Shown: positions 6,750 through 54,686, numbered from the stretch's first letter. The stretch: DNA of 64,000 nucleotides from Dehalococcoidia bacterium (GCA_965242665.1 OZ251484.1:1470249-1534248), one strand, 5' to 3'. Notes: generated by a model from the sequence alone, not told the origin. Translations and numbers: made by a program.

Positions 6750-6846
6750 TGTCATTCCCACACCATCCCATCATTCCCACACCCCTCACGCCATTCCCAT
6801 ACCTCTCCCGTCGTTCCCGCAACCCTTCCGTCATTCCCGCGAAGGC
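6750..6846 (+). repeat. Repeat-element array (tandem cattcccaca-type units plus a terminal gtcattcccgcgaaggcgggaatct palindrome)
   Basis: Read directly from the sequence in the intergenic region downstream of gatA. Confidence 0.85.
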
Positions 6847-6926
6847 GGGAATCTGGCGCCCCCGCGTCCGACGACCCCTCACTCCCGCGCGCCCGGGGCG
6901 AACAACAGCGCCCCCATGAGCCCGCG

Positions 6927-8654
6927 TCACTCCCGCGCGTCTGGGGCGAACTCCACCTCCCAAATGCGGTCGGTGCCGTCGAACTGCCCGGTGACGATCC
7001 GCGCGATGCCGTACTGTGGAAGACCGACCCCGGCCAGACACTTGCCGTCGAACAGCACGCCGCGCACGTCGAAGTCAAAGTCGAGGTTGTCGAACCCATG
7101 CTCCCTACGGCGACTGTCCGGAAGATCGTCGAGAGCCTCGGGAAAGACGTGCAGGAAGAAGGGCACATCAGTATCGGCGCCGCCGCACGGCTCCTTGACG
7201 TAGTACAAATTGCCCCCATCGAGGTACACGTCGAACTCCGAGCGCGCAACGGGTTCGTTGGAAGTGATCGATTGGTACTCGGAGATGAGTTTGGGCCCTT
7301 GCACGACATGCGCTATACTCCAAACCTCCGCCCAATCGAGTCGGACTCGACCTGTGCGAATCCCTGCGATGTCGTACTGCGGGAGATCGACGCTGGCCAG
7401 ACATCTGCCGTCGAATAGCAAGCCGCGGTTGCCGACAGCGAAGTCGAATCTGTCGAACTTATGCTCCCTGCGGCGAATGTCCGGAAGATCGTCGAGGGCC
7501 TCGGGAAAGACGTGCAGGAAGAAGCGCGCATCGAGATCCGATCTGTTGCACGGCTCCTTGAGGAAGTACACCGTGCCGTCAATGAGATACACGTCGAAAT
7601 CCTTCTGAGCCAAGGGCTCGATGGACGTGACCGACCTATACGTGGATCGATGCCATGCCGTCAAGCCGGCCATGTCGTAGAGGAACAATTGCCGGTTCTG
7701 TGGAGTGAGGAGTGCGTCCGTGGCGAATCGTCGGCGAGCGACGAGGAATTTGTGACCCGCAGTAGAAGGGTATCCAAAATCTATGAAGGCCAAGTTTAGA
7801 TAGTACGACACTGCGTGCAGAGGCAGCAGTTCTCGGATGCCGCCGCGATCGGTGACGATGACCGTCCCTCCCGCAGTCGCCTCGCGCATGGCAAGCGCGT
7901 CCCGCTCCGCCGCCTTCGCTGCCTTCGCCGCTCTCTCCTCCGCGTAGTACCCAGCGAAGCCTCTCATCTGGAAGCTGGAGACTGCAAAGAGCGCGGCTGC
8001 GGCCACGGCAACGGCCGCGATGACGCCGTCCCGACCGGCCAGCCTCCTCGCCAACAGCAGGACGATGGTGAAGAAGACCAACGGGAGGCCGATATAGTAG
8101 ATACTCTCGAAGTCATTGAGTGCGGTATTGTGGCGCATTGGCAGCGCCCAGAAGAAGCCGAACGATGCCAGGGTAACGAACAGGATTCTCAGACGAACGA
8201 ACAGAGAGCCGATCAGACACGCCGCAGACAGAACGACGCCGAGTACGACGACCCTGTCTTTCGGCAGCCACGCAGGACCTTGAGCCGTATTGCCCTCCCC
8301 AAGCAAGGCGTAGGGAATGAACATTCGGACGATGTCTCGGAACTGCCCTTCCAGGAAAGAACTCCAGCCTATGTGATCGGCACTTCCGATCCCGCCAGAC
8401 CCGGTGCGCTTCAGCATAGACTTGAAGGACGGCAATTCCGTCAGCGGCGTTTCCCCGCCTAATGCGGCGTACTCCATCGTGAAGTTGAAGGTGAGGATGG
8501 ACAGGCCAAACCCCAGCACAACTGCGCCCAGCAGCAGGTAGCGGCTGCGAAGCAGCGCGGAGGCCGCGCGTTTTACTTGACATAATACGGGGGGGGGGGG
8601 GGGGGGGGGTAGAAGTTGCGGAGGCAGAACGCGCCCGCAACAGGTCGCGCGCAA
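6927..8654 (-). CDS. Large membrane protein, C-terminal portion (TM segments followed by two tandem ~110-aa extracytoplasmic repeat domains). Probably the same gene as 8113..9303, interrupted at the poly-G tract.
   Basis: This ORF begins with a poly-Pro stretch translated from the homopolymer. Hydrophobic helices follow (LLLGAVVLGFGLSILTF...). The segment FDVYLIDGTVYFLKEPC...FFLHVFPEALDDLPD...RRREH... is then duplicated in tandem (nt ~7000-7300 and ~7340-7640). Confidence 0.55.
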   Translation of the reverse strand: MRATCCGRVLPPQLLPPPPPPPVLCQVKRAASALLRSRYLLLGAVVLGFGLSILTFNFTMEYAALGGETPLTELPSFKSMLKRTGSGGIGSADHIGWSSFLEGQFRDIVRMFIPYALLGEGNTAQGPAWLPKDRVVVLGVVLSAACLIGSLFVRLRILFVTLASFGFFWALPMRHNTALNDFESIYYIGLPLVFFTIVLLLARRLAGRDGVIAAVAVAAAALFAVSSFQMRGFAGYYAEERAAKAAKAAERDALAMREATAGGTVIVTDRGGIRELLPLHAVSYYLNLAFIDFGYPSTAGHKFLVARRRFATDALLTPQNRQLFLYDMAGLTAWHRSTYRSVTSIEPLAQKDFDVYLIDGTVYFLKEPCNRSDLDARFFLHVFPEALDDLPDIRRREHKFDRFDFAVGNRGLLFDGRCLASVDLPQYDIAGIRTGRVRLDWAEVWSIAHVVQGPKLISEYQSITSNEPVARSEFDVYLDGGNLYYVKEPCGGADTDVPFFLHVFPEALDDLPDSRRREHGFDNLDFDFDVRGVLFDGKCLAGVGLPQYGIARIVTGQFDGTDRIWEVEFAPDARE

Positions 8655-9303
8655 GCCCGAAGATGACGAACGGCAGCACCAGGGCCAAGACGTGCCATCC
8701 CAACAGCAACGCGATGCACGTCTTGACGAGCAGCTGACGGAAGCGGCCTTCCTGCACGAAGACGACCATGCCGTGGAAGACCAATAACACCCCGAAGAGG
8801 TCGGGCATCCCCTCGTTGGCTGTCATGTCGTTGTGGTAGAGCAGGTGGTACGACGAGAACGCCAGCAGCGTTGCAGTGAGTGCAACCCACCGGTTGGATG
8901 TGAGGCGGCAGAGCGAGAGATATGCGAGGACCGCCGCGACTGCGAAGAACAGCAGCATGAGGATTCTAGCGGCCATGATTTGGGCGGACGGGTTACCGGA
9001 GACTGGCAGGGTGGCCGCCTTCATGGCTGCGTAGCCGGCCGGCGGGAAGCGGTTGTACGGCGCGTAACGGACTGCGCCGTCGTCGTCTATGAACCGACGA
9101 TGAAACCGCTGGAAGCCGTGTTCGGGGGAGAGGTTCACGGCTATCGTCAGGTGTTCCGAGGATGTCCAGTTGTGATAGTCCCCTCGGTAGAAACGCCCTC
9201 GGTCGTCGCCGAACACGAACACCGTCGACAGCGCAAGCAACAGCAGGGCGAGGGGTAGCAACGGGGATCGCAGCGCGGGCGTGATTCTGTCGAGTGATGT
9301 CAT
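8113..9303 (-). CDS. Polytopic membrane protein, N-terminal portion (putative GT-C-like glycosyltransferase). It is truncated by a frameshift at a homopolymeric G/C tract.
   Basis: This 396-aa ORF has multiple TM helices and a first-loop acidic motif (FGDDRGRFYRGDYHNWTSSEHL...). It reads through the poly-G as PPPPPP and ends 160 codons later in what looks like an out-of-frame tail. Confidence 0.55.
   Translation of the reverse strand: MTSLDRITPALRSPLLPLALLLLALSTVFVFGDDRGRFYRGDYHNWTSSEHLTIAVNLSPEHGFQRFHRRFIDDDGAVRYAPYNRFPPAGYAAMKAATLPVSGNPSAQIMAARILMLLFFAVAAVLAYLSLCRLTSNRWVALTATLLAFSSYHLLYHNDMTANEGMPDLFGVLLVFHGMVVFVQEGRFRQLLVKTCIALLLGWHVLALVLPFVIFGLARDLLRARSASATSTPPPPPPRIMSSKTRGLRAASQPLPAAGRSCAGVWPVHPHLQLHDGVRRIRRGNAADGIAVLQVYAEAHRVWRDRKCRSHRLEFFPGRAVPRHRPNVHSLRLAWGGQYGSRSCVAAERQGRRTRRRSVCGVSDRLSVRSSENPVRYPGIVRLLLGAANAPQYRTQ
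8589..8609. repeat. 21-nt homopolymeric G (coding-strand C) tract
   Basis: The run cataatac[g x21]tagaag is visible directly. It lies at the junction of the two membrane-protein ORF fragments. Confidence 0.95.
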
Positions 9304-9367
9304 GCTTGGGAGACGTGCGCGAAGAGAGGCGTATAGGGCATTATACTATACCGACGGCCGGGCGCTG

Positions 9368-9397
9368 TTGACAAGCGCGCGTCGAGTCTGCTAATGT
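9368..9397 (+). promoter_or_regulatory. Candidate sigma70-type promoter upstream of the response regulator gene (TTGACA ... 18 nt ... TAATGT)
   Basis: The -35 element ttgaca lies at 9368-9373 and the -10 element taatgt at 9392-9397. An AAGGAGG ribosome-binding site lies at 9451-9457. Confidence 0.35.
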
Positions 9398-18388: not shown

Positions 18389-19189
18389 CTACATTTCGAC
18401 CGCGTCGGGCAAGTCGTCCATGCCGTAGTACTGGTGCTCGATGCGGTCGTCGTACATCTTCACGATGCGGATGCCGGACGGATCGTCGCCGAGCGGGAAG
18501 CCGACTGGGCCGGAGATCACCATGAGCATACGCCCATCGGATGCGTAGGCGTTGCGGTGCCAATGGCCGGAGAATACGCCTGATACGCTGCGCCGGCGCA
18601 GGATGTCCAGCAGCGCCATCCTGCGCTCCTTGGGGATGACGCGCACTTCGGGGCCGGGACCGTCAGGCTCGTCCGGATCCTGGGCGAACAACGGGTGGTG
18701 CATGAACACCACGGTGTGAGCGGCGTTCTCGCTGGCGCGGTCGATGTCGCGGCGGAGGAACTCGAGGAGAGACTCCCATTCGTCTTCTACATCCGAGGGA
18801 TCCGCACACACGGAGCTGTTCAAGACGACGAAATGGCTCCCGCCGGCGTCGAACGAGTAGTTGTCGTCCCCAAACTTGTCGCGGTACCGTCGCAGGCTCT
18901 CCGGCGTGGGAGTGTTTCCAACGTCGCAGTTTCCGGGCGCGAGGTAGATGGGGACGTCCTCGCTCAGTTGGTTCGTAATCCGCATCAACTCTTCGTGCTG
19001 CTCCTCGTTGCGCGGATCTTGGACGAGGTCGCCGGTCACGACCACGAATGCGGGTCGCAGACGGTTGGCTGCCGAGACGGCCTTCTCGTACAAGGCCGTC
19101 TCCGGGAACGTCCCGTCGGAAGGCGCTTGCCCGCGCGTCCGAAACATGCCAAACTGCGGATCGCTCAGATGTATGAAGAAAAACGACAC
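18389..19189 (-). CDS. Metallophosphoesterase (calcineurin-like phosphoesterase)
   Basis: Metal-binding motifs HLSDPQFG, VVVTGDLV, GNCD and GHWH are present. Confidence 0.8.
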   Translation of the reverse strand: MSFFFIHLSDPQFGMFRTRGQAPSDGTFPETALYEKAVSAANRLRPAFVVVTGDLVQDPRNEEQHEELMRITNQLSEDVPIYLAPGNCDVGNTPTPESLRRYRDKFGDDNYSFDAGGSHFVVLNSSVCADPSDVEDEWESLLEFLRRDIDRASENAAHTVVFMHHPLFAQDPDEPDGPGPEVRVIPKERRMALLDILRRRSVSGVFSGHWHRNAYASDGRMLMVISGPVGFPLGDDPSGIRIVKMYDDRIEHQYYGMDDLPDAVEM

Positions 19190-19267
19190 GATGCCACGCT
19201 CCTTGAGATTTCGTTTGATTTACGGTGTGCGGGCGCTCCCATGAATAACCGTCCGGTGCCAAGATCT

Positions 19268-19380
19268 GGATTCCCGCCTTCGCGGGAATGACGATGGCGG
19301 GTGCGGGAATGACGATGACGGGTGCGGGAATGACGATGACGGGTGCGGGAATGACGATGACGGGTGCAGGAATGACCGGG
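19268..19380 (-). repeat. Repeat element: palindrome plus four exact 21-bp tandem units (gcgggaatgacgatgacgggt)
   Basis: The sequence reads ggattcccgccttcgcgggaatgacg, then atggcgggtgcgggaatgacg, then three further units. Confidence 0.9.
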
Positions 19381-19511
19381 CCGCCCGCAGAAATGACGGC
19401 AAGCACACTTCCGATATGGGGGGCAACTCACGCTGCCGATACATCGACTAGAACCCTCCATGATGACGCCTCGATTTTCCGAGGCCATCCTAATTCCGTT
19501 GGCGGCTTCTC

Positions 19512-25507: not shown

Positions 25508-25576
25508 CGTTGCCCCCATGCCAATAGATCGAACCGATCCCCGGGGTCGACAGCGACTCGACGAAGAGAGCCTCCG

Positions 25577-27569: not shown

Positions 27570-27570
27570 C

Positions 27571-28914: not shown

Positions 28915-29040
28915 TCCCTCCTTACAAGAAATCTCCCTCGCCCCTCATCCACCACACACCCCATCACCCCCACATTCTACCACACCCCGCACAACAGCGC
29001 CCAAGCTCCCTGCTCCAATGTAAAAAGCGACGATGTGTCT

Positions 29041-29300
29041 CCCGTCATTCCCACCCACGTCTACGTCACTCCCGCACCGCCTACGTCATTCCCACCCATG
29101 TCTACGTCATTCCCGCGAAGGCGGGAATCTCCCCCTCATACCACACAACCCCCACGTCCGGCACATCCTGCACCGCCTCCCGTCATTCCCACACCCTCCA
29201 CGTCACTCCTGCACCGCCCACGTCATTCCCACAACACACCCACGTCATTCCCGCGAAGGCGGGAATCTCCCCAATCGACAATCAGAAATCACAAATCATC
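29041..29300 (+). repeat. Repeat-element array (two palindromes plus about eight gtcattccc units), followed by the secondary caatc(g/a)acaatc repeat
   Basis: Read directly from the intergenic region. Confidence 0.9.
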
Positions 29301-29760
29301 AATCCCCCTCCACCGCCTCATACACCCTCACCCCCCTCCTGCTCACAGCCCGCAGCCGTCCCTCCCTCTCCAACGACCGCATCGCCCCCTGAACCGCCGG
29401 CGCGCCATGCCTCCGAAACTTCCCCATGATCTTCCCCTGCGCCTTCGGACGCTCGCAATACTCCAACACCTGCTCCGCAAGCAAATCATCCACCTCAGGA
29501 AGCGCCGAACGCGGCACGACCAACGTAACCCCCGCGTTCCCATCCACATCCTCCCCAAACATGTACTCCAACCGACCCTCATGCCTCCGCAAGAACGCCC
29601 GCAAACGCTTCCGCAGCACGCCCCCCACCCCGCTCGCGCCGTACCCATGCACCACCTCCAATCCTCCCCCAGACCGACGCAGCGCCCCGTTATACGCCTC
29701 AATGAACGCAGGCAGCGCCTCCGACCACGTCTGCCCATGCAAATCCAACGTCTCCATCAC
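29299..29760 (-). CDS. Smr-domain protein
   Basis: METLDLHGQTWSEAL carries the LDLHG motif that is diagnostic of Smr (MutS2 C-terminal-like) nicking-nuclease domains. Confidence 0.7.
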   Translation of the reverse strand: MMETLDLHGQTWSEALPAFIEAYNGALRRSGGGLEVVHGYGASGVGGVLRKRLRAFLRRHEGRLEYMFGEDVDGNAGVTLVVPRSALPEVDDLLAEQVLEYCERPKAQGKIMGKFRRHGAPAVQGAMRSLEREGRLRAVSRRGVRVYEAVEGD

Positions 29761-29825
29761 TCCCTACCCCCGCAAAACTACTCCGCCCCTACGCATCCAC
29801 CCATCACTGCCCCAAATCTGCCCAC

Positions 29826-29893
29826 GCCACTCCCGCACCGCCTACGTCATTCCCACAACACTCACGTCATTCCCGCGAAGGCGGGAATCTCCC
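29826..29893 (+). repeat. Repeat element (units plus a palindrome)
   Basis: The sequence reads cactcccgcaccgcctacgtcattcccacaacactcacgtcattcccgcgaaggcgggaatctcc. Confidence 0.9.
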
Positions 29894-29912
29894 CCCCATA
29901 CTACCACCCCCC

Positions 29913-30626
29913 TCACGGCCTGCACACCTTGCAACCCACAACATCCCGCCCCGTCTCCCCAGCCCGCCCAAAAGCATCCTCCCGAGAACCAAACGGCCCA
30001 TGCCACTCATTCTCATGGACATTGATAGGACCGCGCTTCCTACCTTGCCAGTACGTGCAAGTCTCCCTGTGAACCCGCGCATAGTTGTATATCTTCTCCT
30101 CGTACACCCCGTAACCCACGGCACTCCCATCCGGTGCCGGTTGCCGCGGCGGAACGCCCGGCTGCAGATTATCCCGTATCCTCTCCACCTCCCGCTTCTC
30201 CTCCTCCGCACCAATCCGCCCAAGCACCTCGGCAAAGTCTGTCAACCGACTCTCCACGTACCGCACGGACAAGTCTTTCCCACCCGGGTGCGAGGACTCG
30301 TTTCGCGCGTCCACGATCACGCGAACCAAGTTCAAAGACGACCGGTCGTGCTCAAACGCAGATCCGAAAACATCCTTCCAATAGAGGTCGACGATGTGGG
30401 GAATGGCGTTGAGGTCTATCGCCCCCTCGACCCCTTCTCCGCGCCGGCGGCGCCGTTGGAACGCCTTCCGCCCAGCATCATTCAAAGACGACCGTATCGC
30501 CTCCTCCGCCCCATCGCCGAAAACACACCGCATATGCCGCACGACGAACGCACGCATCGCATCCCGAAAGATATCCACCGCCCGATTCAGCGCATCCCTA
30601 TTCGGTCGCTCCCTCATCGTACTCAC
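29913..30626 (-). CDS. Swt1-like HEPN-domain protein with a conserved Cys/His-containing C-terminal domain that is shared with the SPFH protein downstream
   Basis: The N-terminal half contains ...VRVIVDARNESSHPG..., an Rx4H HEPN motif in a Swt1-like context. The C-terminal ~65 aa, YGVYEEKIYNYARVHRETCTYWQG...EWHGPFGSREDAFGRAGETGRDVVGCKVCRP, is paralogous to residues ~270-340 of the 562-aa neighbour. A GTG start follows a GGAGG ribosome-binding site. Confidence 0.6.
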   Translation of the reverse strand: MSTMRERPNRDALNRAVDIFRDAMRAFVVRHMRCVFGDGAEEAIRSSLNDAGRKAFQRRRRRGEGVEGAIDLNAIPHIVDLYWKDVFGSAFEHDRSSLNLVRVIVDARNESSHPGGKDLSVRYVESRLTDFAEVLGRIGAEEEKREVERIRDNLQPGVPPRQPAPDGSAVGYGVYEEKIYNYARVHRETCTYWQGRKRGPINVHENEWHGPFGSREDAFGRAGETGRDVVGCKVCRP

Positions 30627-30649
30627 CAGCCGAACGCCTCCAACGAATA

Positions 30650-30697
30650 CTCACTCCCGCACCCTCCCCGTCATTCCCGCGTAGGCGGGAATCTCCC
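30650..30697 (+). repeat. Repeat element (single palindrome copy)
   Basis: The sequence reads ccgtcattcccgcgtaggcgggaatctcc. Confidence 0.9.
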
Positions 30698-30764
30698 CAC
30701 GGCCGGCACGCCCCTCACCCAACGCGCCGTCTCCGGCAACTACCCAAATATAAACGAGGCTGAC

Positions 30765-30908
30765 TCAGGACATCATGACACCGACGATACCAAACACGAT
30801 GGCCAAGGCCCCTATTATGAGAAAAGCACCGCGGCCCCAGATCCTCCAACCAATGGCAGCGATAAAAAGCCCCCCAACTATGGACAGTGCGAATGTGTCG
30901 TATCCCAT
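30765..30908 (-). CDS. Small (47-aa) hydrophobic membrane peptide
   Basis: The minus strand reads AAAGGAGGATCAA-ATG GGA TAC GAC ACA ..., giving MGYDTFALSIVGGLFIAAIGWRIWGRGAFLIIGALAIVFGIVGVMMS. It has a near-perfect ribosome-binding site and lies in the lower-GC patch. It is below the 60-aa cutoff of the ORF track. Confidence 0.45.
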   Translation of the reverse strand: MGYDTFALSIVGGLFIAAIGWRIWGRGAFLIIGALAIVFGIVGVMMS

Positions 30909-31156
30909 TTGATCCTCCTTTCCGATTTCAAGAATTTCTCCTGAACATTAGTAAGGAATTATATACCAGCGCATCACAATAGTCAACCACGCAAGCATTG
31001 ATCCATTTAATGTATTGGCGTAGGTTACCCCTACAAAACTCGCGGTACCTACCCCCTTCCCTGACACATTCTCCAATAGAAAGGCTTTGAACTGTATAAC
31101 ATCTGCTTCCCTCTTTCAGAAAAGTAGAGCCCTACTCACCATAAACGCAATGCCTA

Positions 31157-32845
31157 CTATGGCAAGTAAGACGCAATCCGGGCTAGCGCGAACGGCATCG
31201 TCAATATGCAAATCAATAGAAGGAGTGCTGCTATCTTCAGAAATGCGTCTTTCTCTGTGGACACCCCGACTGACGCGGCGATTAAACTCAGAACGAATAT
31301 CCCAGCGTATATCTGCAGCGGAAGAAGGGCCACAACAATGACCACAACAATGACCACCCCCACCAGCACCCCGCAACCAGCGATATAATAACCTAGACTT
31401 AGTCCCTTATGGCCAGAATCCGAGACTTCATCCGTGGCGCTCGGACTCCTCTTCCAACTGCGAGGTGGGTTATTGCGTGAGATGACTTCATCCGTACCGC
31501 TTGGATTCCTCGGTCTCATGTCCGAGGAACTGCGGCGGCGCAAATGTTCCTGCCTGCGCGGCGGCGTATAGTACGACGCATTGGCCTGACCGCCGTGGTC
31601 TGGCGGCGGCTCGTTAGAAACCGCCCCCGAGTTCTCCCTCAATGTTCGAGAAATCCGCACGTCAGCGCCCCCGTGCACACGTGCGAAAGAAATCCGATAG
31701 GTGACGTTTCTTCCGTCCAAATAATAAGACGTCCTACGCGAATGCGGATCGGTCGTATGAAACATGCGGTTGTATTTGGGTATCTGTTTCCTCACCCAAT
31801 CCGGCACATTCTGCATAGATTTCCTTCCATTCTTGAACGAGTAACCAATCTCTTCCCACTCTCCATCGACGCTATGCGGCCTACATACCTTGCACCCTCG
31901 AACATCCTTTTGCCCCGTCGCCTCCGCCCTCCGAAACGCCTCCTCCAGAGACCCATACGGCCCGTACCACTCGCTATCGCCCGGAATCCGCCCGCGCCCC
32001 ATACCCGCGCCGTGATTGCAGTAACGACACCCCCCATCATGAACCTTCGCCTGACTGGTCACCCGATCCTCATACACCCAGTAACTGGAGCCAAGTGTCG
32101 GCGGTGTTGCGGGAGGTATCACAGGCGGGGCGGGCGAATCACGCCGCGGCTTGCGCTCGGTAACTTCGTCAACCTCATGCCGCCGCTTGATCTCCCGCAA
32201 CTCCTCCTCATGCCGCCGCTCCCTAATCCGCTCCCGCTCCTCCGACGTCAACCCCCAGTTCACCGTGAAATTGTCCAACCGCAGACCGTAGAACCGAATC
32301 GTCGACGCCAGCTCGATGTTCACCGACTCGTAGATCCCCCGAAACAACTCCCGATTCCCCCGCAACTCCTCCGCCGTGTACCTGTGAATATCCAACGCCA
32401 GCACCTTGTCCAACAACTCGTCCTTGATCACATCCGAAACGTCCCGCCTCGTGACGACACCGCTCCCCGGCCGCAGCTTCATCAGATGCTCCACGTTCTC
32501 CCGCACGACCCGCATCGTAAGGACAAGCCTCCCAGTCACCGCCTCGTCGTCCGACGTCAGCACCGGCTGCCCCAGCACGACGCCGTCATCAGGCTCCTCC
32601 CGATCCATCGGATCCATCAGCCAAAACGTCAGGGTAAACGGCGCAGTAGAAGCCACATACGTCCGAACCTCCCCCTTCCCAGGCAGATTTCGCTTCCCCG
32701 ACTCGAACACGTCCACCACTTCCCCGTCCTGGATCACGATCCCAATCTGAAAGGGCATGACCGTCAGCGACCATCGCACGCCAAGGAACCCAGCGCTCGG
32801 CCACGCCTCCCGCAATATCGCATCGTCTCGCATTCCCTCGTTCAT
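31157..32845 (-). CDS. SPFH/band-7-like domain membrane protein with a coiled coil, the shared Cys/His C-terminal-type domain, a disordered segment and two C-terminal TM helices
   Basis: The start is placed at MNEGMRDD, which has a GGAGAGG ribosome-binding site. The ORF-track start at 32884 lacks one. The N-terminal ~230 aa look SPFH-like (...VSDVIKDELLDKVLALDIHRYTAEELRGNRELFRGIYESVNIELASTIRFYGLRLDNFTVNW + EERERIRERRHEEELREIKRRHE). The mid domain SYWVYEDRVTSQAKVHDGGCRYC...EWYGPYGSLEEAFRRAEATGQKDVRGCKVCRP matches the HEPN protein's C-terminus. The C-terminal TM helices are hydrophobic. Confidence 0.6.
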   Translation of the reverse strand: MNEGMRDDAILREAWPSAGFLGVRWSLTVMPFQIGIVIQDGEVVDVFESGKRNLPGKGEVRTYVASTAPFTLTFWLMDPMDREEPDDGVVLGQPVLTSDDEAVTGRLVLTMRVVRENVEHLMKLRPGSGVVTRRDVSDVIKDELLDKVLALDIHRYTAEELRGNRELFRGIYESVNIELASTIRFYGLRLDNFTVNWGLTSEERERIRERRHEEELREIKRRHEVDEVTERKPRRDSPAPPVIPPATPPTLGSSYWVYEDRVTSQAKVHDGGCRYCNHGAGMGRGRIPGDSEWYGPYGSLEEAFRRAEATGQKDVRGCKVCRPHSVDGEWEEIGYSFKNGRKSMQNVPDWVRKQIPKYNRMFHTTDPHSRRTSYYLDGRNVTYRISFARVHGGADVRISRTLRENSGAVSNEPPPDHGGQANASYYTPPRRQEHLRRRSSSDMRPRNPSGTDEVISRNNPPRSWKRSPSATDEVSDSGHKGLSLGYYIAGCGVLVGVVIVVVIVVALLPLQIYAGIFVLSLIAASVGVSTEKDAFLKIAALLLLICILTMPFALARIASYLP

Positions 32846-33003
32846 ATCGCCTCTCCAGTCATTCCTACCACTTGCCTGCCCCAACCCTCCCCCCAGTCAC
32901 ACGGCCCGGCCATCCCACCGCCCCGGCACAGGCCGGAGCCCGGCCCCCGCCGAACTCCCACGCACGCCAGAGCGGCGAAACACCGATCCCTGCCGTCATT
33001 CCC

Positions 33004-33567
33004 TCAAACGCGCGAACCTACCCCATCGCCCTCCGCCTTCTCCCGCGCCGCAAGCTCGATCTCCGCCCGCGCACGGTCGAACTCCGCGCCCCGCTCGAAC
33101 TTCACATCGTCCGCGTCCGGCTCCAACATGCGCACGATAGTCTCCAGCTTGTTACCCGACTCCTTCGTGCTGACCGCGATCGCATCCAACTGATCCTCCA
33201 GCGCCTCCTCGTCCAACTCGTTGATCCGCTTCCAAACCCCACGCTTCTCCAACTCCCGCTTCATCCGAAGCACGTCCATCGCAGCATCCAACGCCGCCAT
33301 CCGCGTAATCGTCCGCTGCAAATCCGCCTCCGACCTCGTCTTCCGCTTGGACGCGATCGACATCTGGTACGCATGAACATCACGCTCCGCACTGCCCACG
33401 CCCGGATCCGAAGCCAACCCCAACCGCCGGTCGTACTCCTCCTGCAGCCGCTTGATACCCCGCAACTGCTTGTCCTGCTCCACCTCCTGAACAGCCCGCT
33501 CCTTCCGCAACTCCCCCATCTTCAGATCCTCCAACCTCTTCGCCCTGCCAAATCCCAGTATCCCCAT
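33004..33567 (-). CDS. PspA/IM30/ESCRT-III (Snf7)-superfamily-like coiled-coil protein
   Basis: A 187-aa, charged and heptad-rich protein. The N-terminus MGILGFGRAKRLEDLKMGELRKERA resembles the PspA (MGIFSRF...) and Snf7 N-termini. An AGGAGG ribosome-binding site lies upstream of the ATG. Confidence 0.45.
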   Translation of the reverse strand: MGILGFGRAKRLEDLKMGELRKERAVQEVEQDKQLRGIKRLQEEYDRRLGLASDPGVGSAERDVHAYQMSIASKRKTRSEADLQRTITRMAALDAAMDVLRMKRELEKRGVWKRINELDEEALEDQLDAIAVSTKESGNKLETIVRMLEPDADDVKFERGAEFDRARAEIELAAREKAEGDGVGSRV

Positions 33568-33636
33568 GTCATCTCCTCCTTTTCTCGTTCTTCGTCCTAC
33601 GTTCTCGCCGCGTTCGCGCTATGTTCTCGCCCCCCA

Positions 33637-33797
33637 TCATTCCCACACCCGTCTACGTCATTCCCGCGTAGGCGGGAATCCACACCCCCCGTCATTCCCT
33701 TCGCCATCCCGGTCGTCCCCTTTCTCCAACGTCATTCCCACACCCGTCTACGTTATTCCCGCACCCACCCCCGTCATTCCCGCGCAGGCGGGAATCC
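33637..33797 (+). repeat. Repeat-element array (two palindromes plus gtcattccc units)
   Basis: Read directly. It lies between the helix-turn-helix gene and the PspA-like gene. Confidence 0.9.
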
Positions 33798-33806
33798 ACG
33801 CCCCCA

Positions 33807-34328
33807 TCACCACACACCCTTGTCTGTCCGCTTGATGATCTTCATCTTCTGACCATCCCGATCCTTCATATCCGACTCGATGATCCGCTTCTCCTTCCGC
33901 AGCAACTCCACAGCCTCCCGCACCGCGTCCTCCCCAAAATCCTCGTTGAGATGAGCGATCAAGAGCACTGTCCGCCCCCCCCGGGTCAACATATCATTGA
34001 TAGCGTTCTTGCACGACTTCACCAACGCCGCGCGCTCCTCCTCGTCCATCTCCCGCACCCGCCACCGCGTCGGCTCCAAATCCACATCCGGCGTAATCGG
34101 CACCTTTGACCCTCCCCCCGACCGATGCCCCTCCAACCACTCATCCACCTCCGACCGCCGAAACCTCCACGCCGAACCCAACTTGAACGCAGGAATCTTG
34201 CCCTCCTGCGCCCAACCATATATCGTACGCTCGGACATGCCCAAATACCGCGACACCTCCGCCAACGACATCAACCCAGGCACGCCCGCGCTCCCTCCGC
34301 TATCTCCCACGATCACTCCTGCCAACAC
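33807..34328 (-). CDS. Excisionase-family helix-turn-helix (HTH_17-type) DNA-binding protein with a ~110-aa C-terminal domain of unknown function
   Basis: LMSLAEVSRYLGMSERTIYGWAQEGKIPAFKLGSAWRFRRSEVDEWL is a canonical HTH_17/excisionase-type helix-turn-helix. The start is uncertain: GTG at 34328, or the internal M at 34271. Confidence 0.6.
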   Translation of the reverse strand: MLAGVIVGDSGGSAGVPGLMSLAEVSRYLGMSERTIYGWAQEGKIPAFKLGSAWRFRRSEVDEWLEGHRSGGGSKVPITPDVDLEPTRWRVREMDEEERAALVKSCKNAINDMLTRGGRTVLLIAHLNEDFGEDAVREAVELLRKEKRIIESDMKDRDGQKMKIIKRTDKGVW

Positions 34329-34514
34329 CAGATTTCCCGCAGCTCATGTCACCCCGCAGCCAACTATGACACCATACAACAACCAATATCATACATCTCA
34401 ACCTCATGTCAAGCTATGTCAAGAAATAGCAAACCCCCAAAATCTCCACTCCCCAAGAAATCCCCGAACCACCCCACCTCCAACCCAACCCCCGTCTACC
34501 TACCGCCACCTCCC

Positions 34515-34668
34515 CCATCATTCCTGCACCCCGTCTACGTCATTCCCGCACCCCGTCTACGTCATTCCCGCACCCGTCTACGTCATTCCCGCGTAGGCGG
34601 GAATCCCCAACTCCCACCCACCTACCGCCTCCACTCACCCACGTCATTCCCGCGTAGGCGGGAATCCC
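34515..34668 (+). repeat. Repeat-element array (two palindromes plus four units)
   Basis: Read directly from the intergenic region. Confidence 0.9.
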
Positions 34669-34682
34669 CAACCCCCACCCAT

Positions 34683-35768
34683 CTACCGCCTCCGCAGCAA
34701 GTAGATACTCGGCGCGATATACCCCCGATGAAACGACACCCGCAGCGGAACCTCCGCCGCACGCCTCCACAACCCGCCATGCCGCGCAAGCGCCGCCTCG
34801 AACAGCCGCCGACGCGCAGTGTACGCCGCAAAAGCCCCCCCAGAACGCACCAACCGCCCAGCCTCCTGCAGCGCAGCGTCATACAGCTCATCCAACCCTT
34901 CTCCCCTGTTCCTCGCCATCCCAAACGGAAGATCCGACGACGCCGTGTCGAACGACCCATCCCGCAGCGGCGCCCGCCGCATATCCCCGCGCAGAAGCTC
35001 CACCTCTCCCAACACGCCCGCAGCAGCCACATTCTCCCGCGCGCACGCCAACGCCCCCGCATCCGCATCCACCCCAACGATCCGTCCCGCCCCGCCAACC
35101 GCCGCCCGCTCGATCGGCAGCGTCCCAGAACCGCACCCCAAGTTCACGAACCGCTCCCCCATACCATCCCCGGGCAGCATCACCATCGCGTGCGCAATCG
35201 TAGCATTCATCGCATCCGACCGATTGCACACCCGCCAAGCCCGCGCAGACAGCGGCATCGGCGTCAACCGAATCAGCGCCTCCCATCCAACTCCGCCCCC
35301 CGCCCTGCGAATCGACACATTCAAGTGACCCGCATCCTCTCGATCCTCCAACCCAAAGACCGACGCAATCTCGCCCCGCAACCGCCGCAGCACACTCGAG
35401 TTCGAACCCGCCGCCCGAACGCGGAGCGTCCGAAACGACCCAGCCGGATGCATCCCCATCACCCGCTCGATCGACGCCGCCAACCGCGTGAAACTCTCAT
35501 GCCCCAGCAGAGCCCTCGGACGCGGCGCGTCGAACCGCTCCACCGCATGAACCGCCGCCGCGCTCCGCAGACCCAGCAGCGAACCCGCAGGCCCCCCGTA
35601 CCTGATCGACAAACGCCCCTCTCGATGGATCCCCAGCGAGCGGTACCCCCGCCTGCCCAGCTCCCTCGACAACTCGTCGTCGACGAACCGCTCCAACCCG
35701 CTAACGAGCTCGATCTCATACCGATCGAAGACGTCGGACGAAGCGCTGTCGATTCCGCGGCGAGACAT
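34683..35768 (-). CDS. THUMP-domain class I SAM-dependent RNA methyltransferase
   Basis: An N-terminal THUMP-like region is followed by the methyltransferase motif I VNLGCGSGTLPIE and the (D/N)PPF-like motif SDLPFG. Confidence 0.7.
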   Translation of the reverse strand: MSRRGIDSASSDVFDRYEIELVSGLERFVDDELSRELGRRGYRSLGIHREGRLSIRYGGPAGSLLGLRSAAAVHAVERFDAPRPRALLGHESFTRLAASIERVMGMHPAGSFRTLRVRAAGSNSSVLRRLRGEIASVFGLEDREDAGHLNVSIRRAGGGVGWEALIRLTPMPLSARAWRVCNRSDAMNATIAHAMVMLPGDGMGERFVNLGCGSGTLPIERAAVGGAGRIVGVDADAGALACARENVAAAGVLGEVELLRGDMRRAPLRDGSFDTASSDLPFGMARNRGEGLDELYDAALQEAGRLVRSGGAFAAYTARRRLFEAALARHGGLWRRAAEVPLRVSFHRGYIAPSIYLLRRR

Positions 35769-35880
35769 GACCCGTACTATCCTACCCTACCCACGCCACA
35801 TGCGCTCGACCGCTCGATACGCTATAATACAGACCCAGCCTCCGCGGTAGCCCCGGAGAGTCCCGCATTGAGAGCGTGAG

Positions 35881-36315
35881 ATGCCAACGGTTTTCGTCCC
35901 CCCATTGATGCAAAAACTCACGGACGGCAAGCCCACCGTCCCAGTACAAGGCAAATCCGTCCGCGAAGTGATCGACAACCTCGACCACGCGTACCCGGGC
36001 GTGAAAGCCCGCCTCGTCGACGGCTTCAAACTCAAACCAAACATATCCGTCGCCGTAGACGGAGAAGTCAGCCCCATAGGAATGCTCCAAAGAGTCCAGG
36101 AAGATAGCGAAGTCCACTTCCTGCCCGCGATCGGAGGCGGAAGCCAGACGAAGCCGCCGCGCGCGAAAAGTTCCCCAACGCCCACTCCTGCACCGCAGGA
36201 CAAGCAAGCAGCCTCCTCGACCGCATCCTCGCAAAGAACACGGTGTAGCGCGCTGAACCCCGCCCTCCTCGAAACCGACCGACGCGCATCCATGGAAATA
36301 CCTCCGCCGCGATAA
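35881..36315 (+). CDS. MoaD/ThiS-family ubiquitin-like sulfur-carrier protein with a ~55-aa extension beyond the Gly-Gly
   Basis: The β-grasp pattern ...VAVDGEVSP...SEVHFLPAIGGG is followed by an S/P/T/Q-rich tail up to the stop. Confidence 0.55.
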   Translation: MPTVFVPPLMQKLTDGKPTVPVQGKSVREVIDNLDHAYPGVKARLVDGFKLKPNISVAVDGEVSPIGMLQRVQEDSEVHFLPAIGGGSQTKPPRAKSSPTPTPAPQDKQAASSTASSQRTRCSALNPALLETDRRASMEIPPPR

Positions 36316-36434
36316 GCCATACCGAATATGACCCCCTGGCAAGCTCCCACCAGTCCCGTTGTATGCGCTATAATGAGACCGCGCAGCCGAGCAGCGCAAG
36401 CGCCAAAGAAACCATCCCCGTCCGGAGAAGATAC

Positions 36435-37358
36435 ATGACAGGCCTACACTTCCAAGGAGTCATCGCACCAATAGTCACGCCTCTAACCCCAGACGAGCGC
36501 GTCGACGCATCATCCCTGCGCCGCCTGGTCAACTACCTGATCGATTCAGGCGTGCACGGAATATGGGCCGCGGGGACGAACGGCGAATTCGCCGCACTCC
36601 GAGACGACCAACGCCTCCTCGCCATCGAAACCATAGCCGAAGAAGCCGACAGACGCGTCCCCGTCATCGGCAACGTCTCCGCCCCAGGCACGGCCGCAGC
36701 CATCGACCTCGCCCGCTCCCTGGCCGGATCCAAACTCGACGGCATCGCAGCCACTCCCCCCTACTACTACCACTACGACCAAGCAGAACTCTCCAACCAC
36801 TTTCGCGCAATCAACGCCGCATCCGAACACCCCCTCTGGATATACAATTTCCCGGCCATGACCAAACTCACCGTGGAGCCCCCAACGATCGCCGACCTGG
36901 CAGCCGACGGCGCTGTCGTCGGCGTGAAAGACTCGTCCGGCGCAGGAGAAGCCCTGGCCGAACTCGTCACCATCTGCGACCGGCGCTGCATCGACCTCTA
37001 CCGCTTCCTCGGCTCAGTCTACCGCGCCCCCGCCGCCAAGCGAGTCGGAGCCCACGGCGTAATACCAGGTATCGGAAACCTCGCCGCAACCTCCATCTCC
37101 AGCGCATGGGAAGCAGGAGAAGCAGGCGACAGCGCGAAAGCGGCCAAACACCTCGACGCAGCCATCGAAGCCCAACGAGTCACCCGCCTCGCACAATCCG
37201 GCGGAAGAAACGCCGCCGCCGCTTCCGGAATCAAGGCCAGCCTCAAGATCATGGGCATCATCGAACACGACACGGTAACGTCCCCAATGCGCTCCCTCAC
37301 CAAAGAAGAGAAAGCGTTGATACCCCCCATCCTTCGACGCGCAGGACTGATGAACTAA
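36435..37358 (+). CDS. DapA/NAL-family aldolase (paralog 3)
   Basis: MTGLHFQGVIAPIVTPLTPDERVD...GTNGEFAAL...YNFPAMT... A TATAAT -10 element lies at 36381-36386. Confidence 0.75.
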   Translation: MTGLHFQGVIAPIVTPLTPDERVDASSLRRLVNYLIDSGVHGIWAAGTNGEFAALRDDQRLLAIETIAEEADRRVPVIGNVSAPGTAAAIDLARSLAGSKLDGIAATPPYYYHYDQAELSNHFRAINAASEHPLWIYNFPAMTKLTVEPPTIADLAADGAVVGVKDSSGAGEALAELVTICDRRCIDLYRFLGSVYRAPAAKRVGAHGVIPGIGNLAATSISSAWEAGEAGDSAKAAKHLDAAIEAQRVTRLAQSGGRNAAAASGIKASLKIMGIIEHDTVTSPMRSLTKEEKALIPPILRRAGLMN

Positions 37359-37406
37359 CCCCAAAAACGACTCTGCCCCCAAACTTGCCGTCGACGGCTC
37401 CAGAAG

Positions 37407-37415
37407 TGGTATAAT
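37407..37415 (+). promoter_or_regulatory. Extended -10 promoter element TGGTATAAT upstream of rpsU
   Basis: tggtataat lies ~50 nt upstream of the TTG start. A possible -35 element ttgccg lies at 37385-37390. Confidence 0.45.
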
Positions 37416-37467
37416 GGAACTCGACGCGGCCTACCAACCGCACGATTCGCATTGGAGAAGAAAGAAT

Positions 37468-37656
37468 TTGGCACATGTAACACTCCGTGACGGAGAAGAC
37501 GGCGATCAGCTTCTGAAACGCTTCCAAACCCAGATGCAGCGGTCCGGAATCCTCCGTGAACTGCGGAACAGAAAGTTCTTCAGATCGAGAGGAGAACAAA
37601 AACGCCTCGACAAGGCACGGAGCCTCCGGAGAATTCGCAGACGACGCAGCCGGTAG
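37468..37656 (+). CDS. rpsU: 30S ribosomal protein S21
   Basis: A 62-aa basic protein (AHVTLRDGEDGDQLLKRFQTQMQRSGILRELRNRKFFRS..KRL.KAR). It has a TTG start with a GGAGAAG ribosome-binding site. Confidence 0.85.
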   Translation: MAHVTLRDGEDGDQLLKRFQTQMQRSGILRELRNRKFFRSRGEQKRLDKARSLRRIRRRRSR

Positions 37657-37813
37657 ACCGACAGCGTCCGGCGCTCCCACGCGCACCGAATTCCGCACGC
37701 GCCAACGTCGTCACTGCTACCATGCAGAGCGTTCCGAACGTGTAGCCGCGGTCAGGCAACGAAACATCCCGCGGGATTAGCTGCATTCCCAGCGGAGAGA
37801 AAGGGGATTTGAA

Positions 37814-39454
37814 GTGGCCAGACGCCGGCTAACCGCACTCTGCGCTTGCGCGCTGGCAGGCGCACTAAGCGCCGCCTGTTGGTCCGCCCCTGCATCACCC
37901 GACCCGGCCCCCAATACCCCAGCTCACCGAACCGCAGAACCCGCCGCTGCCGTCCTCACGCCCCCGCGCCCAACGAACACGCCCAACCCCCTTCCCCCCA
38001 CCGCAACCCCCATCGTGATCTACGTCGGCCCCTCCGTGGCCACCATGGTCGTCCTCCTGTCCGATACTCCCACCCCAACCCTCACCCCAACACCCACCCA
38101 AACCCCAACCCGCACTCCGTCCCCCACACGGACGCCCGCACCGACGCACACGCCAACACCCATCATCCCCACACCCACGCCTACCCCCACTCCGACTACT
38201 GCTCCGAGCGCCTCCACGGTCGATACCCCAACCTCGCAACTCCCATCGACCGACACGACGCCTACGCCCATTCCCACGCAGACACCCACTCCAGAACCCA
38301 CCCCAACACCTTCACCGTCCCCCACACAGACGCCCACACCAGAACCTACCCCAACACCTTCACCGTCCCCCACGCAGACACCCACCGCCACACCGTCTCC
38401 CGTCATAGTCCACAGTCCAACGGCAACCCCAACACCATCGCCGTCCCCAACCCCCACTCCCACCCCCGCCACTCCGCAGCCAACCCCTGACGGATCCGAC
38501 GACCCCAGCTTGACCCCCGCAGAAATCTTCTCCATCGTCAGACCATCCATCGTCCACATAGCAGTCGCCAAGGAACCGGAAGTCGGGCAAAACGCGGGAA
38601 CGCAGAGAAGCGACGCCGTCGGTACAGGCATCGTCTGGAACGATGAAGGCCACATCCTGACCAGCGCCCACCTCGTCGAAAACGCCCAATCCATTACCGT
38701 CACCCTCCACGACGGCAGAAGCTTCTTCGCAGAACTCAAAGGCAGCGACACCAACTCCGATACCGCCGTAATCGAACTGCCCCCCCTGAACTTCGACCTC
38801 CAACCAGCAACCCTAGGCGACTCCTCCACACTCACCGTCGGACAACCCATCTTCGCAATCGGTCACGCCCTAGCCATCCCCGGAGACCCCATCTTCACCG
38901 ACGGCATCGTAAGCAGAACCGGAGTCACCATATCCGCAAACGCCCAACTATCCCTCATCGACCTCATCCTCCATACCGCACCCATCAACGAAGGCAACAG
39001 CGGCGGACCCATCGTCGACGCAAACGCCCTCGTCGTCGGAATCAACACCGCCGTCCTCGACCAAGCACGCGGCATCGGATTCGCCATCAACGTAAACGTC
39101 GCAACAACCGTCGCACGCCAACTCATCGAATTCACCGAAGTCCGACGCGGCTCCATCGGCATAACCCCCATCGACCTATCACCGCAACTAATCGCACAAC
39201 TCGGCATTACAGGCCTCCCAGACGACCTCCAAACCGGCGTCTACGTCGTCCGCGTCCGCGAAGGCTCCCCCGCACACGACGCAGACATGCGAAGAGGCGA
39301 CGTCATCGTGCGCATCGACCAAACCCCCATCCAAAACACCCAAGACCTCTCGAACTTCCTCCTAGAACACCAACCCGGCGAACCCGTCCAAATCTTCTAC
39401 TACCGCGGATCCACCGAACGCTCCGCCTTCATCACCCTAGCAGAACAACCCTAA
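37814..39454 (+). CDS. HtrA/DegP-family trypsin-like serine protease with a C-terminal PDZ domain and a ~170-aa Pro/Thr-rich N-terminal linker
   Basis: A signal/lipobox-like N-terminus is present. The catalytic triad context is HILTSAH…DTAVIEL…GNSGGPIV. The PDZ region reads ...[31 protein letters not shown].... The start codon is GTG. Confidence 0.85.
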
Positions 39455-39790
39455 CCCCCCACGTCATTCCCGCGCAGGCGGGAATCCAACCCCCCACGTC
39501 ATTCCCGCGCAGGCGGGAACCCACCGCACCGAATTTGACACAACAGAACCCACGTACTACCATAGACCCATGACCACTCCAACAAAACCACAGCCCAAGG
39601 AGCCACCTTGCAACCCCCAATCATCAATCTGCAACCTGCAATCATCAATCGACAATCTGCAATCACAGATTCCACGCCCCCGTCATTCCCGCACCCTCCC
39701 ACGTCATTCCCGCGCAGGCGGGAATCTAGCACTCTGCAACCCCCAATCATCAATCGACAATCATCAATCATCAATTCCCCCCTCTCGCCC
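39455..39790 (+). repeat. Cluster of palindrome elements plus the secondary repeat tgcaacccccaatcatcaatcgacaatc
   Basis: Three ...gtcattcccgcgcaggcgggaa... copies are present. The 28-bp motif is repeated twice. Confidence 0.9.
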
Positions 39791-39986
39791 TCGGCAAAAA
39801 TCGACAAAATACTACAGAATACGACAAAATACTACAGAAACTCGTGCGCGCGCGTGGAACTTCCGGGCCTCAGTTCCCTCTCACAGAACAGGAATACCGG
39901 CCTTGCACACGCCAGCGCCCTCATATAGAATACCCAGACCCAAATGAGACATACCATCCGAAACTCACCACCGCGGAGAAACAACC

Positions 39987-40439
39987 ATGGACATGCTCAA
40001 AAAAGCCCTCGCCCTCATCCTCGGACTGACAGCCCTCGCAGTCCTCGCCCACTTCGTGCTCGAGCCGTTCTACGAAGACTCCATAGACACCGTCCGAGTA
40101 TGGGGTATCCTCAACGTGTTCATGGCTTTCGGCGCCGTCGTAGCCCTTGCCGCAACCTTCATCGACAAGCGAAGAATCGGATCAGGCGAAAACTCCACCA
40201 CCAAAGAATACATCGCCGTCAACACCGCCTTCTACGCCGCCGCACTCCTCGCCATCTGGTTCTTCTGGAACTGGGTATACGCAACGCCCCTATTCGCACC
40301 CGTGGCATCTGATGATATAGGCTCCGACCTATTCAACATCCATCTACTCTACTGGGCCTTCATCGACCCCCTCTACATCATCATCACCACCGTCGTCAGC
40401 ATCCACCTCTGGCACGACGAACCATCGAAACAGGAGTAG
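39987..40439 (+). CDS. Hypothetical 4-TM small membrane protein
   Basis: A GGAGAAAC ribosome-binding site is present. The 150-aa protein has four hydrophobic helices. Confidence 0.55.
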   Translation: MDMLKKALALILGLTALAVLAHFVLEPFYEDSIDTVRVWGILNVFMAFGAVVALAATFIDKRRIGSGENSTTKEYIAVNTAFYAAALLAIWFFWNWVYATPLFAPVASDDIGSDLFNIHLLYWAFIDPLYIIITTVVSIHLWHDEPSKQE

Positions 40440-40454
40440 CCAGACACGAGCGCG

Positions 40455-40735
40455 CGGCTTACCGTTCACTGTTGCGGCCCGGGCGCAATCCGGGCCGCAA
40501 CAGGTTGGATTCTCCGTCATTCCCGCCGAGTCTCGTCACTCCCGCACCCTCCCACGTCATTCCCGCACCCTCCCACGTCATTCCCGCACCCTCCCACGTC
40601 ATTCCCGCACCCTCCTACGTCATTCCCGCGTAGGCGGGAATCTCCCATTGCGCGATTGGACGCACCGCCTTGGAGAGTCGCCGTCCTCCAGCCGTCATGC
40701 CGCAAAAGGAAACGGAACCGGGCGCGGCATTGCCA
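40455..40735 (+). repeat. Composite MITE-like element (second copy): hairpin ttgcggcccgg-gcgcaat-ccgggccgcaa, the left flank, four cgtcattcccgcaccctcccac units and a palindrome, and the conserved right flank
   Basis: Its flanks match the 21190-21600 copy. Confidence 0.85.
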
Positions 40736-54685: not shown

Positions 54686-54686
54686 C

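Follow-up and report, generated by a model that had tools for sequence, protein, structure and literature searches.

The short palindromic repeats scattered over a 64-kb stretch of DNA from a Dehalococcoidia bacterium (GCA_965242665.1, OZ251484.1:1470249-1534248; the whole stretch of 64,000 nucleotides is referred to below as the window) belong, on the evidence of their sequence, to the dRS3/NTS/SRM family already described in Neisseria and other bacteria, and do not constitute a new family. These repeats probably serve to mark the chromosome for a nuclease of the Ssn type encoded elsewhere in the genome. The original prediction followed up here had presented them as previously uncharacterised, and this part of it has to be abandoned, since they are dRS3/NTS repeats which fit the SRM motif, and a known repeat family accounts for the pattern. 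The new features described here are the half-site arrays, the variable in-frame insert in the GatA protein and the strand bias; the family itself was already known.

The dRS3 repeat, ATTCCC-N8-GGGAAT, is the building block of the "neisserial intergenic mosaic elements" (NIME), in which dRS3 copies are separated by RS spacers of 19-214 bp. The NIME arrays stay at the same chromosomal sites from strain to strain, with shifts in copy number, and they were considered in 2007 to be specific to Neisseria (PMC1797815). The extended, oriented form of the repeat, CGTCATTCCCGCGMAVGCGGGAATCYRG, was named NTS in 2025 (PMC11893778). It is bound and cut by SsnA, a 94-residue single-domain GIY-YIG nuclease which acts solely on single-stranded DNA (ssDNA) and solely on the forward strand, the cut falling a few nucleotides upstream of the site on the same strand; cutting depends most on the 5' GTC, and binding on the 3' C (PMC11893778). 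Small single-domain Ssn nucleases bind the hairpin and cut its strand upstream in both Neisseria and Wolbachia. A degenerate form of the site, the "Ssn-related motif" (SRM), is present across phyla. Of the genomes carrying more than 200 SRMs, 81% encode a homolog of Ssn, in most cases with the repeats bracketing it (PMC11893778).

The palindrome ATTCCCGC-N4-GCGGGAAT was found in 18 exact copies in the window versus none in 100 dinucleotide-preserving shuffles. The copies start at positions 6144, 6833, 19270, 21370, 21431, 21491, 25484, 29109, 29247, 29869, 30673, 33660, 33776, 34585, 34646, 39466, 39706, and 40622. An oriented 24-nt core, GTCATTCCCGCG[A/C/T]AGGCGGGAATC (also written GTCATTCCCGCGNAGGCGGGAATC), is common to all 18 hairpins, and five extra copies of this core with 1-3 mismatches were identified in the window. 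The palindrome is directly flanked by GTC on its 5' side and by C on its 3' side in all 18 cases. On ssDNA, the 8-bp hairpin has a predicted folding energy of -8.9 kcal/mol (z = -3.3, DNA parameters). Direct-repeat units of the form TCATTCCC[AG]C accompany the hairpins, 41 of them being located on the + strand and 7 on the - strand, and the arrays show periods of 20-22 (Tandem Repeats Finder). The dense, oriented family of hairpin repeats predicted at 13 loci, at which all 18 copies fall, is real, and its GAAG, GCAG, or GTAG loops and its direct repeats were both borne out. Other parts of the description held only partly. Each copy had been said to end in one perfect hairpin, but several loci hold 2-5 complete hairpins 35-137 bp apart (21307-21511, 25269-25504, 29063-29333 with 29109/29247, 33660/33776, 34585/34646, and 39466/39498), with spacers of 15-118 bp between the hairpins of an array. 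The repeats are mostly intergenic, as stated, but gatA contains one of them in frame, at 6140-6260. As regards orientation, said to be the same for almost all copies, 16 of the 18 perfect hairpins lie on the + strand and those at 6144 and 19270 are reversed. The density of the repeats is about 1 per 3.8 kb. Hairpins occupy almost every spacer of the co-directional gene run at 25.5-35.8 kb, and they also occur just past the stop codons of gatA and of an HtrA-like gene.

The dRS3 palindrome ATTCCC-N8-GGGAAT gave the same 18 exact matches (none in 100 shuffles), while the published SRM pattern, HGTCWYN(0-2)YYVSBRHN(0-5)WNVSBRGN(0-2)RNCYNB (PMC11893778), gave 17 matches in the window vs. 0.66 in the shuffles. 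The Neisseria NTS consensus was matched six times in the window with no more than one mismatch, the match at 19266-19293 being perfect. Since the SRM and NTS patterns, the GTC and C flanks, and the predicted hairpin all match, the window repeats were placed in the NTS/SRM family. The palindrome is identical to that of the Neisseria dRS3/NIME (PMC1797815), in what is there the commonest form, ATTCCCGCG.AGGCGGGAAT, and the two also have in common their intergenic clusters, short spacers, syntenic positions, and variable copy number, as well as arrays which bracket variable genes. Several differences were noted. The nearest organism-named proteins belong to metagenome-assembled genomes assigned to Dehalococcoidia, SAR202, or "Chloroflexi," so that the host is not a Neisseria but a member of the Chloroflexota, the G+C content of the window amounting to 61%. 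The NIME consist of complete hairpins and RS elements, whereas many of the window arrays consist instead of first-half units, 19-22 bp in length, each composed of GTC, the 5' arm, and about 10 further bases; and one window array, unlike the NIME, is translated within GatA. The window repeats share with the NTS/SRM-Ssn system (PMC11893778) the order CGTC, palindrome, and then C, along with a high density and a mostly intergenic location, but differ from it in the 3' tail, which is CYRG in Neisseria and mostly CTCC in the window. The words "tandem," "lagging," "skew," and "in-frame" do not occur in the text of the Ssn paper, in which half-site arrays, in-frame insertions, and strand bias are not mentioned.

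Metagenome contigs are known which share 92-96% identity with the first 16.7 kb of the window. For purposes of comparison, 236 loci were fetched through the repeat, including both genome loci and viral contigs (referred to below as the listed loci); a nucleotide comparison between these loci and the window yielded no homology of more than 200 bp. The Rfam search that had been proposed in order to find a known family gave no match in the window at gathering thresholds. Below these thresholds, the hairpin (21370-21514, 40622-40645) matched CRISPR-DR28 (RF01356), with 19-23 bits vs. a threshold of 35, and the Francisella small RNA (sRNA) FtrB (RF02748); the motif is also present in a Francisella sRNA paper. 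These matches suggest that NTS-like repeats have been catalogued earlier under other names, and the Rfam CRISPR-DR28 and FtrB families may have been built on such repeats.

The repeat features of the window are as follows.

6140-6260, - strand: NTS hairpin (6144-6163), then degenerate first-half units, in frame inside gatA and encoding a peptide which contains GND.
6749-6856, + strand: NTS hairpin (6833-6852) preceded by four first-half units, in the convergent spacer which follows gatA.
19266-19398, - strand: perfect Neisseria-type NTS, CGTCATTCCCGCGAAGGCGGGAATCCAG (19266-19293), with four to five 21-bp first-half units.
21265-21514, + strand: NIME-like array of half-units followed by five hairpins, perfect at 21370, 21431, and 21491 and degenerate at 21307 and 21461; nested in a second repeated element, upstream of the Vut_1 transporter gene.
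25246-25507, + strand: one half-unit, three 61-bp units each containing a slightly degenerate hairpin, and a perfect hairpin (25484-25503).
29043-29270, + strand: two arrays of half-units plus hairpin (29109 and 29247), forming a 137-bp tandem duplication.
29826-29892, + strand: one to two half-units and a hairpin (29869-29888), between the Smr and HEPN genes.
30650-30696, + strand: hairpin (30673-30692) after one degenerate half-unit.
33634-33799, + strand: hairpins at 33660 and 33776, each after one to two half-units.
34515-34669, + strand: three 22-bp half-units and a hairpin at 34585, then a second hairpin at 34646.
39460-39524, + strand: perfect hairpin at 39466 and, 35 bp further on, a one-mismatch copy (39498-39521), directly after the HtrA-like gene.
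39680-39729, + strand: one half-unit and a hairpin (39706-39725).
40514-40645, + strand: five 21-bp half-units (97% alike) and a hairpin (40622-40641), nested in a second copy of the element located at 21207-21600.

The organization of these arrays is polar. One to five first-half units are present at 11 of the 18 window hairpins, always on the 5' side, and no hairpin carries a mirror-image unit on its 3' side. Among the listed genome loci, from 1 to 15 half-units, with a modal array period of 21, are located 5' of 152 of the 229 oriented hairpins, while 3'-arm units are located at none of the 229; the search required at least one upstream array per locus and did not bar 3' arrays. The units inside an array are 96-97% alike, and the unit tails differ from array to array. 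The prediction that array length varies was confirmed, and the change is by whole units: in genomes which are 96 and 92% identical to the window (L237 and L238), the arrays occupy the same sites and differ in their number of units, in steps of about 21 bp. The arrays would grow and shrink by slipped-strand mispairing, and the ability of the single 3' arm to pair with any of the 5' arms may favour this process: when an array is folded, the 3' arm is predicted to pair alternatively with the various upstream 5' arms. Alternatively, the arrays might be tandem full sites stripped of their second halves. Literature searches with the unit and its translated peptides yielded no description of such arrays; the presence of half-site arrays only 5' of the hairpin, the gatA array, and the strand bias were likewise not found in the literature searched. 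The arrays also give rise to spurious open reading frames (ORFs) on both strands (6749-6919, 19165-19542, 28902-29429, 39499-39947, and 40517-40705), in which the peptides VIPAKAGI, SFPRRRES, and DSRLRGND and AGMT repeats recur, and gene callers may report these ORFs as hypothetical proteins.

Ssn genes were looked for using a hidden Markov model (HMM) built from 120 Ssn homologs, which was run against six-frame translations, and by performing tblastn searches with a GIY-YIG consensus. HMM matches were identified in 12 genes among the 236 listed loci, and at least 8 of these 12 genes are bracketed by inward-facing SRMs. Two of them belong to Dehalococcoidia. The first one (locus L169) encodes a 104-residue PF01541 protein (2197-2511) located between CGTCATTCCCGTGAAAACGGGAATCCAG and its reverse complement. 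The second, carried by the complete 2.87-Mb chromosome OZ242210.1 (L243), lies between copies of a stem variant which co-varies, CGTCATTCCAGCGAAAGCTGGAATCCAG, and canonical copies of the repeat and a second GIY-YIG gene are present close by (L243 2573-2884, 10001-10315). The bracketing of Ssn genes by inward-facing repeats reported in the NTS/SRM-Ssn system is thus also found in the class to which the window belongs, and the association between Ssn and the repeat is demonstrated for Dehalococcoidia, the window's own genome excepted. An IS200/IS605-type TnpA had been put forward as the trans-acting partner of the repeats; the GIY-YIG ssDNA nuclease Ssn is the better supported one. NCBIfam contains no model for the Dehalococcoidia Ssn. 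The Ssn-type GIY-YIG proteins of Dehalococcoidia share 70-75% identity with homologs assigned to Dyella, Rhodanobacter, and Halopseudomonas, and the stems of the Ssn-bracketing repeats co-vary (CCCGC/GCGGG, CCCGT/ACGGG, and CCAGC/GCTGG). The fact that the Ssn identity between phyla is so high suggests that the nuclease and repeat may have spread horizontally as a module. The distribution of the repeat itself is wide. When one genome per species was scanned for a half-unit plus a hairpin, at least 116 stretches were found in many phyla: about 38 of them belong to Dehalococcoidia and other Chloroflexota, and the other hosts include Alpha-, Beta-, and Gammaproteobacteria, Patescibacteria, Planctomycetota, Bacteroidia, Campylobacteraceae, Clostridia, Zixibacteria, Omnitrophota, and others. 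The hairpin alone was also matched in viral contigs, among the matches listed.

One of the window arrays is translated. The gatA gene (5138-6709; Pfam Amidase, E = 7e-158) contains the array 6140-6260 in frame, read in reverse on the + strand, and the resulting insert of about 40 residues, which starts with VDSRLRGND, is located at the same point in all the 79-95% identical homologs. The GatA homologs are 495-567 residues long with the insert vs. 487 without it, and in one subclade the lengths of 496, 503, 538, 545, 552, 559, and 566 residues differ by steps of 7 residues, i.e., 21 bp. At the DNA level, the site is empty in L240 and carries a decayed single unit in L239. Residues 12-338 and 379-521 of the window GatA align with solved GatA structures; because the alignment splits there, the array can be said to swap about 4 residues (between 334 and 339 in PDB 4wj3) for about 40. 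The in-frame insertion of the Rickettsia palindromic elements (RPEs; PMC10969869) is the nearest known parallel: in both cases, a palindromic repeat is inserted in frame into a housekeeping gene, which is kept, and adds a peptide to its product. The RPEs differ from the gatA array in that they belong to a different sequence family, as far as tested, and have a fixed length of about 150 bp, whereas the length of the gatA array varies between relatives by 7-residue units.

The orientation of the repeats was found to be correlated with strand composition. Forward copies favour the C-rich strand: 68% of 116 listed genome loci are concordant when the repeats are masked (Fisher p = 2.5e-4), and the concordance reaches 77-84% where the absolute skew exceeds 0.05-0.1 (p from 3e-5 to 3e-3), although the loci from one genome are not independent; for the 68-84% concordance as a whole, Fisher p runs from 2.5e-4 to 1e-5. 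The bias is present separately in Chloroflexota and in the other phyla, and in the Dehalococcoidia chromosome OY762063.1 all 59 copies present in the six loci read are concordant. The skewed part of the window (24-48 kb) contains 31 forward units and no reverse ones, and the unskewed part (1-24 kb) contains 9 forward and 7 reverse units. In the textbook picture, it is the G-rich strand that serves as template for lagging-strand synthesis and is exposed as ssDNA. The bias would then keep the cleavable strand off the strand which is most often exposed in this form in the course of replication.

The + strand is very poor in G over about 24.0-40.6 kb and less markedly so over 44600-64000, and the skew is absent in the first 24 kb and in the 40.6-44.6 kb interval. 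The third-codon (G-C)/(G+C) value ranges from -0.41 to -0.78 in each gene located in 24000-40600, whichever strand it is on. The aminotransferase gene (27571-28914) was compared with two relatives, which show no skew and carry no repeats in 21 kb: the proteins are 87-89% identical and the DNA 75-77%. On the coding strand, 148 of the 179 ancestral third-position Cs have been changed into T or G (listed C>T 97, C>G 76), and in the eight four-fold codon families examined only one NNC codon, a single GGC, is left. This C-depleted zone contains 14 of the 18 perfect hairpins. The candidate explanations for this C-depleted region of about 16 kb are a replication skew of the whole lineage, a join made in assembly near 24 kb (at a repeat array), and a process linked to the repeats. 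At 38069-38466, in the N-terminal part of the HtrA-like protease gene, tandem repeats rich in C (periods 12, 24, and 48; e.g., CCCACCCCAACC) were also observed; they encode a Pro/Thr-rich low-complexity stretch and may be a by-product of the strand bias.

The process which we consider to be probable is as follows. The unit is a palindrome of 20 bp, always flanked asymmetrically by a 5' GTC and a 3' C, which is predicted to fold on ssDNA into an 8-bp hairpin, and the half-units are copies of the first half of the site, consisting of the cleavage-side GTC and the 5' arm. In the Chloroflexota host, as in Neisseria, the repeats would act at the DNA level: the Ssn-type nuclease would cut ssDNA with the forward strand, for example incoming DNA or repair DNA, and this cutting might shape recombination around the repeat-flanked genes. 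The repeat and the nuclease together would form a semi-selfish module that has spread across phyla.

Several points weigh against this explanation. No Ssn gene was detected in the 64-kb window, either by tblastn or with the HMM even at E < 50, or with the HMM in the loci of the close relatives L237-L240, and none of the 120 Ssn homologs listed can be linked to the gatA-insert clade. The gene for the cognate Ssn would lie in another part of the genome. Small ORFs of the window were covered by the HMM and tblastn screens in place of gene-by-gene Pfam annotation, and one of them may nevertheless encode a highly divergent partner. Outside Neisseria, Ssn has been assigned no biological role (PMC11893778). 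Natural competence is not established for the window's lineage, and the origin of the first duplication of the half-unit is not explained. The strand bias was not observed in the set of viral contigs or in one gammaproteobacterial chromosome, and it could be due to the compositional erosion of C-rich half-units on the C-depleted strand.

A more far-reaching version of this process, to which we give little credence, is that the repeat-nuclease pair also acts on the ssDNA of the chromosome itself, and that the placement of the repeats on the C-rich strand, the polar half-site arrays, and the loss of C across 16 kb all reflect a single process. Nicking by Ssn at forward sites, or its avoidance, would then expose the complementary strand and so promote mutation specific to one strand, while array growth would be a by-product of repair. 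If this were true, mutation and recombination would be organised locally by the repeats, which would even create a hypervariable loop in GatA, an essential enzyme.

The hairpins might also be repetitive extragenic palindromic (REP) sequences maintained or copied by a REP-associated tyrosine transposase (RAYT), i.e., by a domesticated IS200-like tyrosine transposase encoded by a single-copy gene. Bertels and Rainey give ATTCCCGCGCAGGCGGGAATC as the master sequence of the Neisseria REPINs, the REP doublets which they associate with a Group 2 RAYT (bioRxiv 10.1101/2021.07.10.451892), so that a RAYT has been proposed as the partner of the very same sequence in Neisseria. The REP-like picture given in the original prediction is a reasonable analogy, which the authors who described the family draw themselves (PMC11893778): like the REP sequences and the bacterial interspersed mosaic elements (BIMEs), the window repeats are short, palindromic, mostly extragenic, and clustered, and both the REP/BIME and REPIN-RAYT systems resemble the NTS in consisting of short extragenic palindromes present in hundreds of copies and forming mosaics. 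The REPIN-RAYT system also resembles the NTS system in that ssDNA hairpins are recognised by a dedicated, vertically maintained nuclease-like protein. It differs in its inverted doublets and in involving a HUH tyrosine transposase rather than a hydrolytic GIY-YIG nuclease. REPINs are inverted pairs less than about 130 bp apart, whereas the reverse copies in the window (6144 and 19270) are at least 690 bp away from the forward ones; REPINs proper were rejected, no inverted doublets being present in the window. In the window, tblastn gave neither a RAYT nor an IS200 match, although the approximate RayT and IS200 TnpA queries used make this a weak test, and the 236 listed loci carry one weak RAYT-like match (L157) and one IS200 (L173) vs. 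12 Ssn genes. For elements of the IS200/IS605 type, moreover, the active strand would be expected to coincide with the G-rich template of lagging-strand synthesis, and the opposite pattern was observed here. A RAYT-based origin of the window repeats is unlikely.

The possibility that the hairpins act at the RNA level, as 3'-end stabilisers, terminators, or insulators resembling the REP hairpins of Escherichia coli operons, is at best a slim one. Their stem is predicted to be stable, and they are located in the spacers of the 25.5-35.8 kb gene run and after the gatA and HtrA-like stops. On the other hand, one copy lies inside the coding sequence of gatA, and the orientation of the repeats is the same next to the - strand genes (25-36 kb) as next to the + strand genes (36-41 kb), so that it tracks strand composition and not the direction of transcription. 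The asymmetric flanks fit a DNA-binding nuclease, with no RNA binding (PMC11893778). The terminator role proposed originally did not stand up, since no hairpin is followed by a T-run and a terminator scan does not pick the hairpins out. Intrinsic terminators as such were rejected, the hairpins being followed by CTCC, CCAC, or similar sequences, and the 21-41 kb scan showing no excess over the shuffles and no hairpin with a T-tail. The hairpins may still have a side effect on RNA.

That the repeats are integration or recombination sites is very improbable: the Neisseria dRS3 is the target of the Nf/MDA prophages and a proposed recombinase site (PMC11893778, PMC1797815), and accessory genes of small size (Smr, HEPN, HTH_17, and a methyltransferase) do lie between the repeats, at a place where relatives carry different genes, but no recombinase, integrase, or filamentous-phage gene was present among the window ORFs scanned, and the half-unit arrays and the strand bias would be left unexplained, although such a role could coexist with cleavage by Ssn. 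Two further classes were rejected. The non-autonomous mobile element originally envisaged, a miniature inverted-repeat transposable element, is not supported, since the flanks of the 18 copies show the family consensus only (CAC-GTC...C-TCCC), with no visible target-site duplication, and the length varies with the number of units. CRISPR arrays were dismissed because the 21-bp units have the same "spacer" inside an array and no cas domains were found in the scanned ORFs.

Other features of the window were noted. The second repeated element, which measures about 150 bp without the arrays, is present in two copies (21207-21600 and 40462-40735), each split by an NTS array; sequence examples are CGGCTTACCGTT...CCGGGCCGCAA.AGGTTGGA.TCTCC and TTGCGCGATTGGACGCACCGC...GCCGTCATG.CGCAAAA. 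Both copies are located upstream of + strand genes, namely the Vut_1 transporter gene at 21658 and an unassigned ORF at 40656. This element gave no convincing Rfam match; a 5' leader and a further mobile element are both conceivable identities for it. An uninterrupted tract of 21 Gs at 8589-8609, located at the end of or just upstream of a long - strand ORF (6927-8654), could be either prone to slippage or an assembly artefact. The accessory genes present in 29299-35768 and 41403-44571 include genes encoding Smr, Swt1-like HEPN, SPFH/Band 7, HTH_17 (AlpA-like), and UPF0020-type methyltransferase proteins. They are bracketed by the arrays and are followed by three paralogous HSDR_N-domain genes without any strand skew. 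In the relatives, the aminotransferase gene is adjacent either to ADH or to a methylase, HicB, and a helicase. The region 29299-35768/41403-44571 looks like a variable island.

The present analysis places the Neisseria dRS3/NTS repeat, at a density similar to that observed in Neisseria, in a free-living or symbiotic member of the Chloroflexota. At a practical level, the arrays also give rise to sub-threshold matches with CRISPR and sRNA families and are places where metagenome assemblies are likely to break or to be joined. Three handles on the role of the Ssn-repeat pair outside Neisseria are provided by the half-site arrays, by the strand bias, and by the variable in-frame GatA insert. The fact that the exact 24-nt site and the polar half-site array recur from Patescibacteria to Proteobacteria supports the idea that this pair is an ancient or highly mobile module.

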